Source of the DNA: an uncultured Nitrososphaerota archaeon
Lineage (GTDB): Archaea > Korarchaeota > Korarchaeia > Korarchaeales > Korarchaeaceae
Assembly: GCA_964480775.1 (NCBI GenBank)
Contig: CAYZRF010000015.1
Coordinates: 15,359-47,358, forward strand
DNA: 32,000 nt
Direction of reading: 5' to 3'
Below are positions 393 through 30,499 of this stretch, in pieces. Each line of letters opens with the position of its first letter. Within the stretch, counting starts at the first letter, position 1. The translations under genes were made by a program, and so were the position numbers. The notes beneath the pieces were generated by a model. That model was not told the origin of the DNA and searched no databases. It worked only from the letters and a program-made list of their open reading frames with translations.

Positions 393-487
393 GGGGGCGT
401 GGGGTAGTTTGGTCTAGCCTGAGGGCTTCGGGAGCCCTTGACGCCTTAGAGGCGGGGGAAACCCGGGTTCAAATCCCGGCGCCCCCA
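393..487 (+). tRNA. tRNA-Pro (anticodon CGG at 429-431) with a 20-nt intron at non-canonical position 45/46 (441-460); no encoded CCA
   Basis: Hand-folded cloverleaf. Acceptor GGGGGCG (393-399) pairs with CGCCCCC (480-486). D stem is GGGU/GCCU. Anticodon stem AGGGC/GCCCU carries the 7-nt loop UUCGGGA. T arm is CCGGG-UUCAAAU-CCCGG. The 24 nt between position 43 and the T stem contain a BHB-like fold (see findings). Confidence 0.75.
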
Positions 488-1430: not shown

Positions 1431-1518
1431 AGCCCCGGGCGGGACTTGAACCCGCGACCTGCCGCTTTCACTGCTTTGGCATACGAGGCGGCCGCTCTGC
1501 CAACTGAGCTACCGGGGC
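1431..1518 (-). tRNA. tRNA-Thr (anticodon CGU) with a 15-nt intron at canonical 37/38 (1467-1481)
   Basis: The reverse complement folds as GCCCCGG-UA-GCUC-AGUUGGCA-GAGC-G-GCCGC-CUCGUA|intron|A-GCGGC-AGGUC-GCGGG-UUCAAGU-CCCGC-CCGGGGC-U. All four stems are Watson-Crick. Confidence 0.9.
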
Positions 1519-2878: not shown

Positions 2879-2983
2879 GCCGGGGTACCCTAGTCCGGTA
2901 TGGGGCGGGCCTGGAGTCTGTAGTTGGCGGAGAGCCCGTGGCCCTTTTGGGCCGCGTGGGTTCGAATCCCACCCCCGGCGCCA
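2879..2983 (+). tRNA. tRNA-Ser (anticodon GGA at 2913-2915), class II with a long variable arm, 16-nt intron at 37/38 (2917-2932), encoded CCA
   Basis: Acceptor GCCGGGG/CCCCGGC. Anticodon stem CGGGC/GCCCG with loop CUGGAG|intron|A. Variable arm GGCCC-UUUU-GGGCC. T arm GUGGG-UUCGAAU-CCCAC. Discriminator G followed by CCA at 2981-2983. Confidence 0.85.
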
Positions 2984-4495: not shown

Positions 4496-5404
4496 TTGGA
4501 GTTGACAACATCACCAAAGAATCTAGGGGACCTAATGCTTAACTGGTATCAAAAGCAGCTTGGCAGCAGAGCCGAGCTTTCAAGGCCTGGTGATGATGAA
4601 TACTCTGTCTACATTCATATTGATGATTTTGAAGGAGGTAGAGAGGTCCTTGCCATTTTTCTAATTCCTGAAAGCGTTGAAGATTTTATTAAGTCTGTTA
4701 GAAACGAAATTAAATATTTAGAGGAGAAGGAAGTCCTCGTTGATTTTATTGATATTTGGGTTCCCCACGATTGGGTTGATAGATTAGAAGAGGTTGTTGA
4801 AGGCTTAAATGAAGAAAGCAAAGGCTTTCCTTTCATTAGGATTAGGGATTCTATCCAACTAAGTATTCCTATTTCAGCCCTAAAGGAACTCATATCAGGA
4901 TCAAAACCACCAGAAGTCACGTCTTTCAGACCAAAGGTTCCAAAGAGGACAGAGTCTAGGTTCAGGGAGGATAAGAGGCCAGCATTAAAGCATAAGAACG
5001 AGAGAGGTGTTGCCCTAACCGAGGAAAGATTAGAGGAGATTCTCGAGAGGGTTATAAGGAAGGTCGAAGGAGAAAGAAGAATAAACGACGTGGAGAAAAC
5101 GGTTGATGAGTTACAAAGAAGGATTTCCCTTTTAGAAGAAGTTATAAAGCTCCTTATTTCTTCCAAAAGTCCTCAACCCCAGTTTCCTCTAGATTCGTCC
5201 CTTATCCTCCCCGAGCATAAAACCGTTGAGAAAAAAGCGGCTAAAAAGTCAACCAAGCTTGAGCCAAAAATGAAAACAGTACCAAAGGATCAGGCAAGAA
5301 AATATTCTCCTGAACTCATTGAAGAGTTTGTAAAGGACAATCCTTGGGCTGAAGTTTTGAAGGAAAGGGGCAGGAGAGAGGAGGATGAAAACACCACATC
5401 ATGA
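4496..5404 (+). CDS. Hypothetical Lys/Glu-rich protein with a predicted coiled-coil, inserted between rps11 and rpoD
   Basis: 302-aa ORF on the same strand, within the operon. I recognise no family. Start is uncertain: TTG 4496 after GGAG, or ATG 4535. The opposite-strand ORF 4615..5166 looks like a shadow of it. Confidence 0.5.
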   Translation: MELTTSPKNLGDLMLNWYQKQLGSRAELSRPGDDEYSVYIHIDDFEGGREVLAIFLIPESVEDFIKSVRNEIKYLEEKEVLVDFIDIWVPHDWVDRLEEVVEGLNEESKGFPFIRIRDSIQLSIPISALKELISGSKPPEVTSFRPKVPKRTESRFREDKRPALKHKNERGVALTEERLEEILERVIRKVEGERRINDVEKTVDELQRRISLLEEVIKLLISSKSPQPQFPLDSSLILPEHKTVEKKAAKKSTKLEPKMKTVPKDQARKYSPELIEEFVKDNPWAEVLKERGRREEDENTTS

Positions 5405-9537: not shown

Positions 9538-9835
9538 GAGATCAGCAGGTTTTTTGCATAAGTCAAGGAAGTTCCTCAGAAAGAAGCCAAGAGAGAGGGG
9601 AATGCCTCCTCCTTCTAAATTTCTTATGGAGTATAAAGTAGGACAGAAAGTTGTCATAGACGTTTTCCCCTACTTCAAGGAAGGAGGATTTCCTCATAGA
9701 AGGTATCAGGGTAAGGTAGGAGTAGTTGCAGGAAAGAGGGGTCACTGCTATTTGGTAGACGTAAAAGTAGGCAAAAAAGTCAAGCACCTGATCGTGTCAC
9801 CGATCCACCTTAAGCCTCATCAGGAGCAGAGGTGA
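9530..9835 (+). CDS. rpl21e: 50S ribosomal protein L21e (eL21)
   Basis: RKKPRERGMPPPSKFLMEYKVGQKVVIDV...HRRYQGKVGVV...VKVGKKVKHLIV matches the L21e pattern. It overlaps the pus10 stop by 8 nt. Confidence 0.9.
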   Translation: MGRRSAGFLHKSRKFLRKKPRERGMPPPSKFLMEYKVGQKVVIDVFPYFKEGGFPHRRYQGKVGVVAGKRGHCYLVDVKVGKKVKHLIVSPIHLKPHQEQR

Positions 9836-9841
9836 AAATAT

Positions 9842-11543: not shown

Positions 11544-11612
11544 TGTTGACTGAGAGATGTATCAGATAGTTCGCTCATAAAGATTAATTCTCTCAACAAT
11601 TTCGAAATTGTG

Positions 11613-13187
11613 ATGTCAACATACGTAGTAGATGAATACATATTGACCAGTGGGGGCTTAACTGATGAAAGCTCCCTTAAAAAGCTAAGAGGCTCTACTA
11701 TCCTCATTCCGGAAGGGATCGTTAAGCACATGGAAATAAGAGCAAATAAAGGAGATAGGAGGGCGCTTGAAGCCCTTTATCACGTTCTTAAGTTGCGAGA
11801 GATGGCTCCTAAATTAAAAATAGAGGTTAGGATCGCTAAACATTCAGAAAGGGGCTCTAAAGCACTTGAAGAAATAGCGAAAAAACATGATGCTAAGGTC
11901 CTCACTAGCAACTCCATAAGGTGGCTTGCCTTCAGGGCAAAAGGAATTCCAGCCTCATACCTTGGCACTGGAGATTGGCGCCCAGTCATCGAGGAGTTCT
12001 TCCAGAAGGACGTAATGAGCGTACATCTGAAGGAAGGAGTACCCCCCATGGCTAAGAGAGGGCGTCCAGGACACTTCAAACTCGTCAAGCTAAGGGAGGA
12101 GCCTATGAAGAAAGAAGAGATGATGAAGCTTGCTTATGCTCTTATAGAGGGCGCAAGGTCAGATCCAGAGGTTTTCATAGAGATCCAAAGGAGAGACGCG
12201 TATGTCATTCAGCTAAGGGAATACAGGATTCTCATAGCTCTTCCGCCGTTTTCTGATGGCGTTGAGATAACAGCGGTAAGGCCCATCGTAAAAGTTACCC
12301 TGGACGATTATGAGCTAAGTAACAAGCTGAAGAAAAGGTTGAGGGAAAGAGCGGAGGGAATTATAATAGGTGGCCCTCCAGGAGCAGGAAAAACTACGTT
12401 TACAAGCGCTTTGGCCGAATTCTACAAGGATCTGGGAAAGATCGTTAAGAGCTTGGAGTCGCCAAGGGATCTGCAGGTAGGCGATGAAATCACGCAATAC
12501 ACAAAGCTAAACGGGAGTTTTGTGAATACTGCCGATCTACTACTTCTTGTAAGGCCAGACTACGTGTGTTTTGATGAGATGAGGAAGGACGATGATTTCA
12601 ACATATACACAGATATGCGTTTGGCTGGCATAGGCATGGTTGGCGTGATACATTGTGGCTCACCGATCGAGGCAATTGAGCGTTTTATAGGCAGGGTCGA
12701 CTTGGGAATGCTCCCGCATGTGATAGATACTGTGATATTCATAGAGGAGGGGAGAATAAAGAAGGTCTACAGCTTAGGTATTACAGTAAAAGTTCCTCAC
12801 GGGATGAGAGAGGAAGGTCTCGCGAGACCTGTTATTTTGGTTAGAGATTTCGAGAGCGGCCAAGCCGAATATGAGATATACTCCTTTGCGGAGCAGGTTG
12901 TGATAATGCCACTTAGGAGGAGAAGGCCTCCATCCATTGAGATTAGGGAGCCTCCAACAGGCAAGGAGATATATGATTTTGCCGTTAGAGAAGGAAAGAA
13001 ATCGATTATATTAGAGTTTGGAGAATTGGGTGCAAACAGAAGTGTGTCCTTGTACGATGCCGATAGGGAAATCACTACAGTGAAGTTAGGTCCTATGGGG
13101 AGGGCTGCTGTAGGGAAGAGAAGAAAAGTTGGGAGGCAAATATTAAAGGCATGGAGGGCCGGGACTCTCAGAGCCTTCTTCTTATAG
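11613..13187 (+). CDS. PIN-domain / PilT-like ATPase (archaeal COG1855-type)
   Basis: About 524 aa with an N-terminal PIN-like region, Walker A GGPPGAGKTTF and Walker B-like YVCFDEMR. This architecture is conserved across archaea. Confidence 0.72.
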   Translation: MSTYVVDEYILTSGGLTDESSLKKLRGSTILIPEGIVKHMEIRANKGDRRALEALYHVLKLREMAPKLKIEVRIAKHSERGSKALEEIAKKHDAKVLTSNSIRWLAFRAKGIPASYLGTGDWRPVIEEFFQKDVMSVHLKEGVPPMAKRGRPGHFKLVKLREEPMKKEEMMKLAYALIEGARSDPEVFIEIQRRDAYVIQLREYRILIALPPFSDGVEITAVRPIVKVTLDDYELSNKLKKRLRERAEGIIIGGPPGAGKTTFTSALAEFYKDLGKIVKSLESPRDLQVGDEITQYTKLNGSFVNTADLLLLVRPDYVCFDEMRKDDDFNIYTDMRLAGIGMVGVIHCGSPIEAIERFIGRVDLGMLPHVIDTVIFIEEGRIKKVYSLGITVKVPHGMREEGLARPVILVRDFESGQAEYEIYSFAEQVVIMPLRRRRPPSIEIREPPTGKEIYDFAVREGKKSIILEFGELGANRSVSLYDADREITTVKLGPMGRAAVGKRRKVGRQILKAWRAGTLRAFFL

Positions 13188-20205: not shown

Positions 20206-20309
20206 GGGCCGGTAGCGCAGTCTGGTAGCGCGCCGCTCTCGCACTAAAAACGGTGATTTGCCGTCTTTGCGAACAGCGGAGGTCGCGGGTTCGAATCCCG
20301 CCCGGTCCA
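20206..20309 (+). tRNA. tRNA-Ala (anticodon CGC at 20240-20242) with a 30-nt intron (20244-20273, boundary ambiguous by 1 nt)
   Basis: Acceptor GGGCCGG/CCGGUCC contains the G3:U70 alanine identity pair. Anticodon stem CCGCU/AGCGG. The anticodon region UCGC pairs with GCGA at the intron 3' end. T arm GCGGG-UUCGAAU-CCCGC. No encoded CCA. Confidence 0.9.
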
Positions 20310-21958: not shown

Positions 21959-22051
21959 GGGCCCGTAGCTCAGTAGGATTAGAGCGACGGCCTCCTAGGC
22001 CTCGTCGAAGAAAGCCGTAGGTCGCGGGTTCGAGTCCCGCCGGGCCCGCCA
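21959..22051 (+). tRNA. tRNA-Arg (anticodon CCU at 21994-21996) with a 15-nt intron at 37/38 (21998-22012), encoded CCA
   Basis: GGGCCCG-UA-GCUC..GAGC-G-ACGGC-CUCCUA|intron|A-GCCGU-AGGUC-GCGGG-UUCGAGU-CCCGC-CGGGCCC-G-CCA. Confidence 0.9.
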
Positions 22052-25780: not shown

Positions 25781-26514
25781 ATGGTTGAGAAGAAAGAAGG
25801 TTATGCCGCGAGGCGAGCTAGACTAGTTGAAAGCTTAGTTATGCAGGGAATCATCAGGTCCGATTCTGTAAAAAGATCAGCCATGAAAGTTCCAAGAGAA
25901 AAGTTTGTTCCGTTGGGACAGAGGGAGTATGCCTATGACGATGCCCCTCTTCCGATTGGGGAGGGTCAAACCATAAGTGCGCCACACGGATCCCCTCGAG
26001 GGGATTCGGGCGAGACATGGTTTTCATGATGAACGAACTCCTTCAGTTGGAAGAGGGCATGATAGTTTTTGAGGTGGGTGCTGGGAGCGGATATCATGCA
26101 GCGACGCTGGCAGAAATAGTAGCTCCAGAGGATTTGCCCATGGAAGAGTGGGGTCACGTCTATTCGGCTGAGATAGTCAGGAATCTTGCTGTAAGAGCTT
26201 GGAGAAATATCAGGGAGGTCGGATACGCTGATAGAGTAAGCGTTCTGCACTGCGATGGAAGTTCTGGATTCCCCTTGAACATCAAAGCTGATAGAATTCT
26301 AGTAACTGCTGCGGCCCCTTCGCTCCCGAAGCCATTGATGGATCAGGTGAAAATAGGCGGAAGAATTGTTATCCCCATAGGCTTCGCTCAAGCGTTGTTC
26401 TTCGCCCAAAAACTTGTGGTCGCGGATAAGGTAGATGAGGGTAAGTTCGACGTTAGGGAGGTAGCTGACGTCGCTTTCGTACCGTTAAGAGGTAGATATG
26501 GATGGAGAGGTTAA
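25781..26514 (+). CDS. pcm: Protein-L-isoaspartate O-methyltransferase (PIMT), reading frame interrupted by a 29-nt BHB element. Exon 1 is 25781-25985 and exon 2 is 26015-26514
   Basis: The two listed ORFs (25688..26029 and 26017..26514) together cover a complete PIMT: ...PLPIGEGQTISAPH / MVFMMNELLQLEEGMIVFEVGAGSGYHAATLAEIV...FVPLRGRYGW. Removing 25986-26014 gives one 234-aa ORF (205 + 500 = 705 nt). Confidence 0.85.
25986..26014 (+). other. Candidate bulge-helix-bulge (BHB) intron within the pcm mRNA
   Basis: Outer helix h is GUG 25977-79 paired with CAU 26016-18. Central 4-bp helix is CGCC 25980-83 paired with GGCG 26009-12. The 3-nt bulges are ACA 25984-86 and AGA 26013-15. Inner helix is 9 bp (25987-95 with 26000-08) capped by a UCGA loop. 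Cleavage after the second bulge nucleotide on each strand removes exactly 29 nt and restores the frame. Confidence 0.65.
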
Positions 26515-27128
26515 TAGCTAGCGGAGCAGAGGCAAGAATTTATGAAATCGATTTCTTTGGATATTCAGCCGTCAAGAAAGTTAGAATAAAGAAGGATTAC
26601 AGGATTCCTGAATTGGACTCCCTTCTTAGGAAGAGGAGGACTTCTAAAGAGGCAAAGGCGCTTCATAGAGCCAAGAGATTTGGGATTCCCTGCCCCTCCA
26701 TTTTGGACATTCATGAGTACGAGATCATCATGGAAAAGGTTGATGGGGTTACTCTTAGAGATCAACTGCTAGAGATAGGAGATGAGGACTTGGCTATGAT
26801 CTCTAACTTGATAGGGGCTATTGTAGGTAGGCTTCACAAGGCTGGTCTGGTTCACAACGACCTCACTGGTGTGAACTTCATTCTAATGGGCCGAAATAAG
26901 GTGTGTCTCATAGACTTTGGTCTTGTTGAGTTTTCAGAAGATTACGAGGATAGAGCGGTAGATTTACATGTATTCAAGCAATCCGTTGCTGCTGTAGATC
27001 CTAGAAGGCTCGATTTTATAATGGATAGGTTCATTGAAGGTTATTCCAGGGAGTTGGGTGAGAAATCTAAGGAAGTATTAGCTAGACTAAAGAACATAGA
27101 GAGGAGAGGAAGGTATAAAACGAGGTGA
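26502..27128 (+). CDS. bud32: KEOPS-complex kinase Bud32 (PRPK-like atypical small kinase)
   Basis: 208 aa. GAEARIY...AVKKVRIKK, catalytic HNDLTGVNFIL and LIDFGL. The small size is typical of archaeal Bud32. It overlaps the pcm 3' end by 13 nt. Confidence 0.85.
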   Translation: MERLIASGAEARIYEIDFFGYSAVKKVRIKKDYRIPELDSLLRKRRTSKEAKALHRAKRFGIPCPSILDIHEYEIIMEKVDGVTLRDQLLEIGDEDLAMISNLIGAIVGRLHKAGLVHNDLTGVNFILMGRNKVCLIDFGLVEFSEDYEDRAVDLHVFKQSVAAVDPRRLDFIMDRFIEGYSRELGEKSKEVLARLKNIERRGRYKTR

Positions 27129-29995: not shown

Positions 29996-30499
29996 CTATC
30001 GCTCAAGCTCCACCAAGGCTGACTTTTCCAGTATAATAAGCTCCTTTCTTTCTGAGCAAGATGAGAAATTTTCTAATCCAAAATCCTTTATTATGTCCTG
30101 TATAGAGCCGAATTCGTTGATTTGAACAGCTCTTAAGGTTTCACATATTTTTGCAGAAAGTTTGTCCCATTCCATCTGTTGAGCTGAGACAAGGATAGAA
30201 ACCACCTTTTCGGACCCTACTGGATTCACTTGTGCTAATGCCTTGTGAATCTGTCTCTCGCCTGTGAGGCACACTGCTATCTCTGATTCTAAGTTTCTGG
30301 TAATGTTTTTTCCCTCTCTAAATGCTCTTAGTGCCCTATATGCAGCTATTGCAGCGTGTTTTGAGGATACAACTGTAGAAGATCTGGTTATTATCAATTT
30401 AACTTCGTCTAAAATGTTTTCGGGGAGTTCCTCTAGAGGCTTAGAGAGCCTTAGAGCCATAACAGCTATGTGTCCCTCGGATGTTCGGAAAACGTCCAT
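29996..30499 (-). CDS. cgi121: KEOPS-complex subunit Cgi121
   Basis: 167 aa. EIAVCLTGERQIHKALAQ and the C-terminal ILEKSALVELER align with the ILVRASGQRQIHEAIK / LEKIALIELKK blocks I recall from M. jannaschii Cgi121. Confidence 0.68.
   Translation of the reverse strand: MDVFRTSEGHIAVMALRLSKPLEELPENILDEVKLIITRSSTVVSSKHAAIAAYRALRAFREGKNITRNLESEIAVCLTGERQIHKALAQVNPVGSEKVVSILVSAQQMEWDKLSAKICETLRAVQINEFGSIQDIIKDFGLENFSSCSERKELIILEKSALVELER

Follow-up and report, generated by a model that had tools for sequence, protein, structure and literature searches.

The 32-kb window examined here (the whole stretch of archaeal DNA that was analysed) carries pcm, the gene for protein-L-isoaspartate O-methyltransferase (PIMT), in two overlapping reading frames. 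Frame 1 ends in ...GQTISAPHGSPRGDSGETWFS at a TGA (26027-26029), and the second open reading frame (ORF), 26017-26514, begins with MVFMMNELL; the frames and coordinates listed in an earlier note on this DNA agree with the ORF listing and the translations. Between the two halves of the gene lies a 29-nucleotide (nt) insert, which that note had proposed to be a tRNA-type, bulge-helix-bulge (BHB) intron. Gene callers annotate two ORFs at the pcm locus, each hitting the Pfam family PCMT, and in every genome of the clade their calls split or truncate the gene. The start Met of exon 1 is the same as that of an N-terminal fragment found in the databases (P0131). At its 3' end, pcm is overlapped over 13 nt by bud32, as had already been read from the letters (bud32 start at 26502), and the same overlap is present in relatives. 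Bud32 is one of two KEOPS components encoded less than 3 kb apart in this window, the other being cgi121 (29996-30499, minus strand). In the unspliced mRNA, the exon-1-frame stop overlaps an in-frame exon-2 ATG as ATGA (26026-26029), which is the classic layout of termination-reinitiation.

In-silico deletion of positions 25986-26014 (29 nt) yields an in-frame protein of 234 amino acids (aa) that reads ISAPH-MVFMM across the join. This product matches Pfam PCMT (9.6e-55) in a single stretch that covers profile positions 3-208 of 210 and runs across both exons. Aligned with the PIMT structures 2yxe and 1jg1, it is gapless at the junction, where the motif is ISA(I/P)HMV. The prediction that a 29-nt excision restores both the reading frame and SAPH-MV is thus borne out by an uninterrupted PIMT. 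Among the best 120 hits, a SAPHM-type motif is contiguous in 114 of 114 full-length homologs, and the sole homolog with extra residues in it is P0001, a read-through of a 27-nt insert. In the window, the insert separates the His codon of the conserved motif SAPH-MV from its Met codon (Table 1).

The nearest named relatives are metagenome-assembled genomes (MAGs) of Korarchaeota, with 62% identity for aRF1 and 58-63% for Pcm. The host belongs to an uncultured hydrothermal (vent) group of TACK/Thermoproteota; the phylum labels in the MAG records of the clade are inconsistent and include Nitrososphaerota, Thermoproteota and Crenarchaeota.

Table 1. Coordinates of the pcm locus, the predicted BHB element and the tRNA genes with anticodon-loop introns (window positions)
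Feature	Position	Strand	Remarks
pcm exon 1	25781..25985	+	from ATG 25781; MVEKKEG...GQTISAP and base 1 of the His codon
Predicted 29-nt BHB intron	25986..26014	+	ACGGAUCCCCUCGAGGGGAUUCGGGCGAG; excision restores the frame and SAPH-MV
pcm exon 2	26015..26514	+	AC supplies the rest of the His codon, ATG GTT... follows; stop TAA 26512-26514
Premature TGA	26027..26029	+	met by the exon-1 frame if the insert stays; overlaps ATG 26026-26028 (ATGA)
Candidate outer helix h, 5' strand GUG	25977..25979	+	weak; pairs with CAU 26016-26018
Central 4-bp helix H, 5' strand CGCC	25980..25983	+	exonic; pairs with 26009-26012
5' bulge ACA	25984..25986	+	predicted cut between C25985 and A25986; unpaired in all single folds and in the RNAalifold consensus
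Inner helix h' and UCGA loop	25987..26008	+	9 bp, 25987-25995 with 26000-26008, one G.U
Central 4-bp helix H, 3' strand GGCG	26009..26012	+	intronic; invariant in 10/10 variants
3' bulge AGA	26013..26015	+	predicted cut between G26014 and A26015
Candidate outer helix h, 3' strand CAU	26016..26018	+	3-bp helix including one G.U; would leave a 3-nt AGA bulge
bud32 (KEOPS kinase)	26502..27128	+	13-nt overlap with the pcm 3' end; context, outside the intron
tRNA gene	21959-22048		anticodon-loop intron, 15 nt
tRNA gene	2879-2980		anticodon-loop intron, 16 nt
tRNA gene	20206-20309		anticodon-loop intron, 30 nt
tRNA gene	1431-1518		anticodon-loop intron, 15 nt

Insert-bearing pcm genes in related lineages

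Searching proteins with the product spliced in silico yielded C-terminal fragments in five clusters (162-179 aa, 81-91% identity) as well as one 243-aa protein whose layout differs only by nine residues, GFQLEPGRN, between H and M. DNA of relatives was collected from the loci of these protein clusters, from JGI metagenomes by a pattern scan, from GTDB species genomes, which were scanned too, and from a search for N-terminal fragments, the variants coming from JGI, ENA, Logan and NCBI assemblies (independent metagenomes and MAGs). Ten distinct insert-bearing pcm variants were obtained, the window allele included, all of them in the gene order PTH2-DUF371-pcm-bud32-HAM1-S15. Alignment of related pcm loci, which had been put forward as a check, places the insert between the same two codons in 10/10 variants; loci without an intron also exist, and 12 such genome loci served for comparison. 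The insert measures 29 nt in the window and L010 (phase 2), 28 nt in L003, L006, L008 and L009 (phase 1), 27 nt in L001 (phase 0), 26 nt in L051 (phase 2) and 23 nt in L015 and L028 (phase 2). Over 25 contigs, produced by various projects and assemblers, contain it, and its sequence varies between lineages. Besides the MAG of the window, the MAGs GCA_037917635.1, GCA_027491375.1 and CAZUBM01 carry the element. In L001/L002 (GCA_037917635.1, JAVCBX010000056.1), the in-frame 27-nt insert leads to a called 243-aa PIMT with a 9-aa insertion in SAPH-MV, an annotation that looks normal, yet is probably wrong.

When the same splice rule is applied in silico, nine variants give an intact PIMT free of any other lesion, and the spliced L015 is open up to its contig end. 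Compared with the window, exon 1 has a dN/dS (the ratio of nonsynonymous to synonymous change) of 0.04-0.13 and exon 2 one of 0.04-0.07, at a synonymous divergence close to saturation (pS 0.4-0.9); both pcm exons are under strong purifying selection. These data bear on one account of the disrupted frame, namely a decaying pseudogene or an artefact of sequencing, assembly or cloning. The window copy does contain GGATCC and CTCGAG (BamHI and XhoI sites), which had raised the suspicion of an artefact, but the sites are unconserved and missing from most variants, and three separate run-level assemblies equal the window sequence exactly, insert included. The lineage-specific sequences of the insert in the more than 25 contigs likewise speak against an artefact, and the low dN/dS in both halves at saturated synonymous divergence, together with the lack of any other stop or frameshift in the 10 lineages, speaks against decay. 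Nor do the relatives share the frameshift without BHB pairing and with a degenerating gene, a pattern that had been named as contrary evidence: the core of the pairing is kept in 10/10 variants, in genes whose exons are under purifying selection. We assign a negligible probability to a pseudogene or an artefact.

A further explanation is a gene that is truly split, in which an N-terminal polypeptide of ~82 aa and a C-terminal one of ~162-165 aa, the latter made by a restart at ATGA 26026-26029 or ATG 26017, assemble non-covalently. It would suit the two PCMT-hitting ORFs annotated by gene callers and the phase-2 variants, including the window, where the exon-1-frame TGA overlaps the in-frame exon-2 ATG. 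This ATGA layout is common to the other phase-2 variants (L010, L051, L015 and L028) and is not present in phase-0 and phase-1 variants. The phase-1 variants overrun 110-161 nt into exon 2 before reaching a stop, and the phase-0 gene of L001 is not split at all but read through with its 9-aa insertion. Moreover, the break interrupts SAPHM, a motif that 114/114 full-length homologs keep in one piece, and a split gene leaves unexplained the covarying hairpin, the invariant CGCC/GGCG and the frozen exonic synonymous sites described below. On this evidence, a split gene is very unlikely.

The insert phases also bear on translational recoding, by which the ribosome would pass the break through a programmed frameshift or through hopping as in T4 gene 60, with the hairpin as stimulator. 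A stable hairpin does lie directly downstream of the break, and confusion between the two situations has a precedent, the introns of cbf5 having formerly been mistaken for frameshifts (PMC2738675). However, phases 0, 1 and 2 all occur, so that no single shift serves, and a shift would still put 8-10 foreign residues into a motif that is contiguous in 114/114 homologs. For a bypass, the take-off codon CAC needs a matching landing triplet before the ATG, where GAC, AAC, UAC or CAC stands depending on the variant; besides, no stop comes right after take-off, the next codon being GGN. Recoding appears extremely unlikely.

The distribution of the insert was compared with a neighbour-joining tree of Pcm. 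The core insert-bearing group is monophyletic in 194/200 bootstraps; the L028 lineage falls among intron-less sequences, and all insert-bearing sequences together are monophyletic in only 15/200. L028 (Ga0180302_10012497) and L015 (Ga0180302_10027725) are GC-rich and deeply divergent, their Pcm being ~57-60% identical to that of the window. Both carry the 23-nt intron with a BHB core identical to that of the others, and L028 groups with intron-less Korarchaeota-like sequences. The pattern suggests that the pcm intron may be old, with losses in several lineages (as proposed for cbf5), or may have been laterally transferred, two histories that a 234-aa tree cannot separate.

RNA structure of the insert

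All the pairings named in the earlier note (central, inner and outer helices, with the bulges) are possible in the window sequence. RNAfold gives positions 25970-26025 an energy of -25.3 kcal/mol, compared with -15.0 +/- 2.6 for shuffles (z = -3.95), with 0/200 shuffles as good. Of the proposed elements, the fold recovers CGCC/GGCG, the bulge on the 5' side and the inner hairpin, but not the GUG/CAU outer helix; in its place the minimum-energy structure pairs ACCAU 25970-74 with AUGGU 26017-21.

BHB-like geometry by itself is statistically unremarkable. A loose scan of both window strands found 29 motifs, compared with 38 +/- 6 in dinucleotide shuffles, and when 9 bp or more were required of the inner helix, one was observed against 0.28 expected. 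Under strict geometry, the scan of the window gave no other convincing intron candidate. The pcm motif is significant because it is placed at one of the three excisions that restore frame and motif: the scan spanned ~7 million (position, length) combinations, of which three equivalent ones give SAPH-MV. From the scan, the chance of a BHB motif at such an excision is estimated at ~1e-5 for a loose motif and ~1e-7 for one this strong. The comparative data outweigh this chance estimate.

Over the ten variants, the sequence GCGCCACACGG ... CGGGCG(A/G)NACAUGGU is invariant, and the enclosed hairpin, of 6-9 bp, changes in both sequence and length. The 4-bp helix CGCC/GGCG and the 3-nt 5' bulge are kept in 10/10 variants; folded singly at 37 and at 80 C, all 10 sequences adopt the helix-bulge-helix core in their minimum-energy structure, and RNAalifold independently arrives at this core as its consensus. 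In the inner helix, 98.8-100% of cells are paired, with compensatory double changes in 5/9 pairs, and registers slid by 1-3 columns are only 27-50% paired. The covariation score of this helix is 0.258, compared with 0.120 +/- 0.021 in shuffles, and was reached by 0/500 of them. Its wobble pairs comprise six G.U/U.G cells and zero A.C cells, the G.U pairs existing on the sense strand only, and a covariance model of the element scores 50-65 bits on the sense strand and 11-17 bits on the antisense strand; the two results together indicate an RNA structure of the mRNA strand rather than a DNA palindrome. Run over 208 kb of sequence, the covariance model (R1) hit pcm sites only, so that nothing there points to a repeat or a mobile element.

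For the 4-bp helix, constraint on the coding sequence gives indirect support. GCG CCA CAC, which contains the exonic strand of the central helix, is identical in 10/10 insert-bearing genes, whereas eight intron-less outgroups use GCT, GCA, GCG or GCC for Ala, CCC, CCT or CCA for Pro and CAT or CAC for His. Synonymous change in the exonic strand of that helix is thus absent only from genes that carry the insert. The 3' bulge opens with A or G, depending on the variant, followed by G, A, U or C at its second position and by an invariant A, base 2 of the His codon, at its third; this is the pattern predicted by cleavage after the second bulge nucleotide, since only then is the third nucleotide exonic.

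The element had been described beforehand as a canonical hBHBh' motif. That description holds for the core of helix, bulge and inner helix, which is found in 10/10 variants, but is too strong for the outer helix, which is broken in 3/10; in Marck and Grosjean's terms, the motif spans hBHBh' to relaxed HBh' across lineages. The alternative outer helix ACCAU/AUGGU is intact in 5/9 variants and shows no covariation.

The same data allow one more explanation to be weighed, in which a conserved sense-strand hairpin is never excised and has another role (regulatory, protein-binding or in stability), with pcm either non-functional or working in pieces. It is consistent with direct covariation support being limited to the hairpin pairs and with the weakness of the BHB outer helix. 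It explains neither the purifying selection on the exons nor a register that canonical BHB cleavage repairs exactly, and it gives no reason for a constant 4-bp helix and two 3-nt bulges beside a hairpin that ranges over 6-9 bp. We judge an unexcised hairpin to be very improbable. None of the models without splicing accounts for the conserved dimensions of the bulge-helix-bulge. These comparisons exclude a pseudogene or an artefact of assembly, and likewise a frameshift of the programmed kind and a uniformly split gene.

A self-splicing group I or II intron was also considered and rejected: the core of such an intron needs hundreds of nucleotides, the insert has 23-29 nt, and Rfam finds only tRNAs in the window.

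Around the element, a helix of ~20 bp can form between the exon-1 codons for PLPIGEG and the exon-2 codons for LLQLEEG, which bracket the intron (fold z = -5.7). The duplex energies of this exon-exon clamp lie well beyond shuffles in the window, L003, L009, L015 and L028 (5/9 insert-bearing sequences), and do not in L001, L006, L008 and L010 or in 8/8 intron-less outgroups. Aligned in a common register, 72% of its cells are paired (71% in shuffles), without any covariation. The clamp (~25941-25963 with ~26038-26060) was rejected as part of the element, being unconserved in register and without covariation.

A predicted mRNA intron of the tRNA type

We consider it likely, with a probability of about 0.85, that positions 25986-26014 are a tRNA-type (BHB) intron of the pcm pre-mRNA, excised by the tRNA-splicing machinery. 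The central proposal of the earlier note, a BHB intron in pcm whose removal restores SAPH-MV, is supported by every sequence-level test that was run. The transcript would fold so that exonic CGCC (25980-83) pairs with intronic GGCG (26009-12), with a 3-nt bulge on each strand and the 9-bp hairpin stacked inside. The splicing endonuclease EndA would then cut after the second nucleotide of each bulge, between C25985 and A25986 and between G26014 and A26015, and the ligase RtcB would join the exons into ...GCG CCA C/AC AUG GUU... (SAPH-MV; the slash marks the join). The 29-nt intron would probably be circularised by RtcB too. Under this mechanism, full-length active protein-L-isoaspartate O-methyltransferase would be encoded only by the spliced mRNA.

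Several observations weigh against an excised BHB intron. The central 4-bp helix is invariant, and its support is one of conservation with zero covariation. The outer helix GUG/CAU is intact in 7/10 variants, never covaries and is not in the RNAalifold consensus; in L015, neither candidate outer helix is intact. No full-length protein of the clade in its spliced form was found in a 5.8-billion-protein collection, and hence no assembled metatranscript showing the junction. Genes for EndA and RtcB, as well as cbf5, were not found within the 32-kb window. Finally, a review describes the EndA of Korarchaeota as an alpha4 or alpha2-type enzyme of strict specificity (PMC4090602), and such an enzyme would sit awkwardly with the relaxed motif. 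If the lineage shares an EndA of alpha4/alpha2 type, the pcm intron would put to the test the link that has been proposed between hetero-oligomeric EndA and introns in mRNA.

The tRNA genes of the window give indirect information on splicing in this organism. Rfam identifies seven tRNA genes in the window, five of them with inserts of ~15-30 nt, and nothing else; with five of the seven carrying inserts, a splicing machinery presumably exists. Five intron-bearing tRNA genes had been claimed with BHB introns, and the count is right, but the BHB fit is obtained only with mismatches and one insert is off-site. A strict BHB scan of the five genes found none at the right place. With one mismatch allowed in the 4-bp helix, canonical 37/38 introns are recovered in the tRNAs at 21959, 2879 and 20206, and the tRNA at 1431 needs two mismatches in that helix. 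With its perfect 4-bp helix, the pcm motif is better formed than the tRNA introns of this genome, whose helices have 1-2 mismatches. In the remaining gene (393-487, plus strand; anticodon CGG, Pro), the Rfam alignment places the insertion, of ~21 nt, outside the anticodon loop, within the variable region. This is a candidate intron at a non-canonical position, which would hint at a splicing endonuclease of broad specificity; the mismatched 4-bp helices of the tRNAs, taken with the variable-region insert, hint at a tolerant enzyme.

A pre-mRNA intron in cbf5 of Crenarchaeota (Aeropyrum, Sulfolobus) was reportedly described by Watanabe in 2002 and Yoshinari in 2006, and is treated by Yokobori in 2009 (PMC2738675). 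Like it, the pcm element is a short BHB-type intron inside an archaeal coding sequence, with an often relaxed motif and a record of mis-annotation as a frameshifted or split gene. Both are patchy among relatives, although the core clade of pcm is monophyletic, with L028 among intron-less sequences. They differ in the gene concerned, a pseudouridine synthase for cbf5 and a protein-repair methyltransferase for pcm, and in the host, Crenarchaeota as opposed to a Korarchaeota-related lineage. Splicing of cbf5 has been confirmed experimentally, whereas that of pcm is predicted from sequence. In Desulfurococcales and Sulfolobales, the cbf5 intron frequently has a relaxed motif and, to judge by its distribution, has been both gained and lost; for Ca. 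Korarchaeum cryptofilum, 0 cbf5 introns are listed (PMC2738675).

Introns at position 37/38 of pre-tRNAs share with the pcm element, as predicted for the window, the succession of helix, 3-nt bulge, 4-bp helix, 3-nt bulge and helix, the cut after the second bulge nucleotide and the size range (archaeal tRNA introns measure 11-175 nt; PMC2738675). In contrast to them, the pcm element has no tRNA body, and its outer helix is coding sequence and weak. A BHB element in an mRNA is also found in Haloferax volcanii HVO_1309, whose 5' untranslated region contains a 46-nt BHB intron processed by EndA (PMC7714728). There the element lies in an untranslated leader and interrupts no frame, whereas that of pcm must go for the protein to be made. 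According to the same paper of 2020, cbf5 is the only other BHB intron reported outside tRNA and rRNA (PMC7714728), and a 2025 structural paper on archaeal endonucleases cites, for mRNA, only the work on cbf5 (PMC12397907). Among the papers searched, none joins isoaspartate with bulge-helix-bulge and none reports a pcm intron, in keeping with the earlier note; searches of the literature from 2015 and from 2019 onward found no further BHB intron in a coding sequence.

Outside the archaea, the mRNAs of HAC1 and XBP1 are cleaved by IRE1 at two stem-loops and then ligated by tRNA ligase or RtcB, in a process regulated by stress. The likeness to pcm lies in the excision of a short mRNA intron that is independent of the spliceosome and catalysed by proteins, in the change of frame and in the use of a tRNA-splicing ligase. 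The differences are the nuclease (IRE1), the recognition motif of two stem-loops and the role as a stress-regulated switch. An extension of our interpretation would make the pcm intron an archaeal analogue of HAC1/XBP1: a conditional EndA/RtcB switch, responding for example to temperature or stress, that sets the level of Pcm and, through the 13-nt overlap, of Bud32, with mRNA splicing by the tRNA machinery reaching beyond Crenarchaeota into a Korarchaeota-related lineage and being ancient with repeated loss. We regard this larger proposal as unlikely; a regulatory role, or a link of splicing to bud32 translation, is speculation.

For more than 20 years, cbf5 has been the sole archaeal coding sequence known to contain an endonuclease-dependent intron. 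If our interpretation is true, pcm joins cbf5 as the second family of archaeal protein-coding genes known to contain a BHB intron, and extends such introns to a new lineage; splicing of mRNA by the tRNA machinery would then be a recurring part of archaeal gene structure rather than a one-off. The gene would offer a second system, with PIMT activity as a simple read-out, for the way in which EndA finds a BHB motif outside tRNA and for the competition between splicing and coupled translation. It would also allow a test of whether introns in pre-mRNA require, as proposed, a hetero-oligomeric EndA of broad specificity. Since gene callers split or truncate pcm across the clade, a BHB-aware step is needed in the annotation of archaeal MAGs.

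Some other features of the window deserve mention. Two ORFs on the plus strand, one of 302 aa (4496-5404) and one of 525 aa (11610-13187), have no Pfam match; the former sits within an otherwise standard S13-S4-S11-RpoD cluster of ribosomal protein and RNA polymerase genes. Between pus10 and an Rpb4-like gene, ~300 nt (9538-9841) have neither an ORF of at least 110 aa nor an Rfam hit, and this gap contains a loose BHB-like motif on the minus strand (9581-9616).

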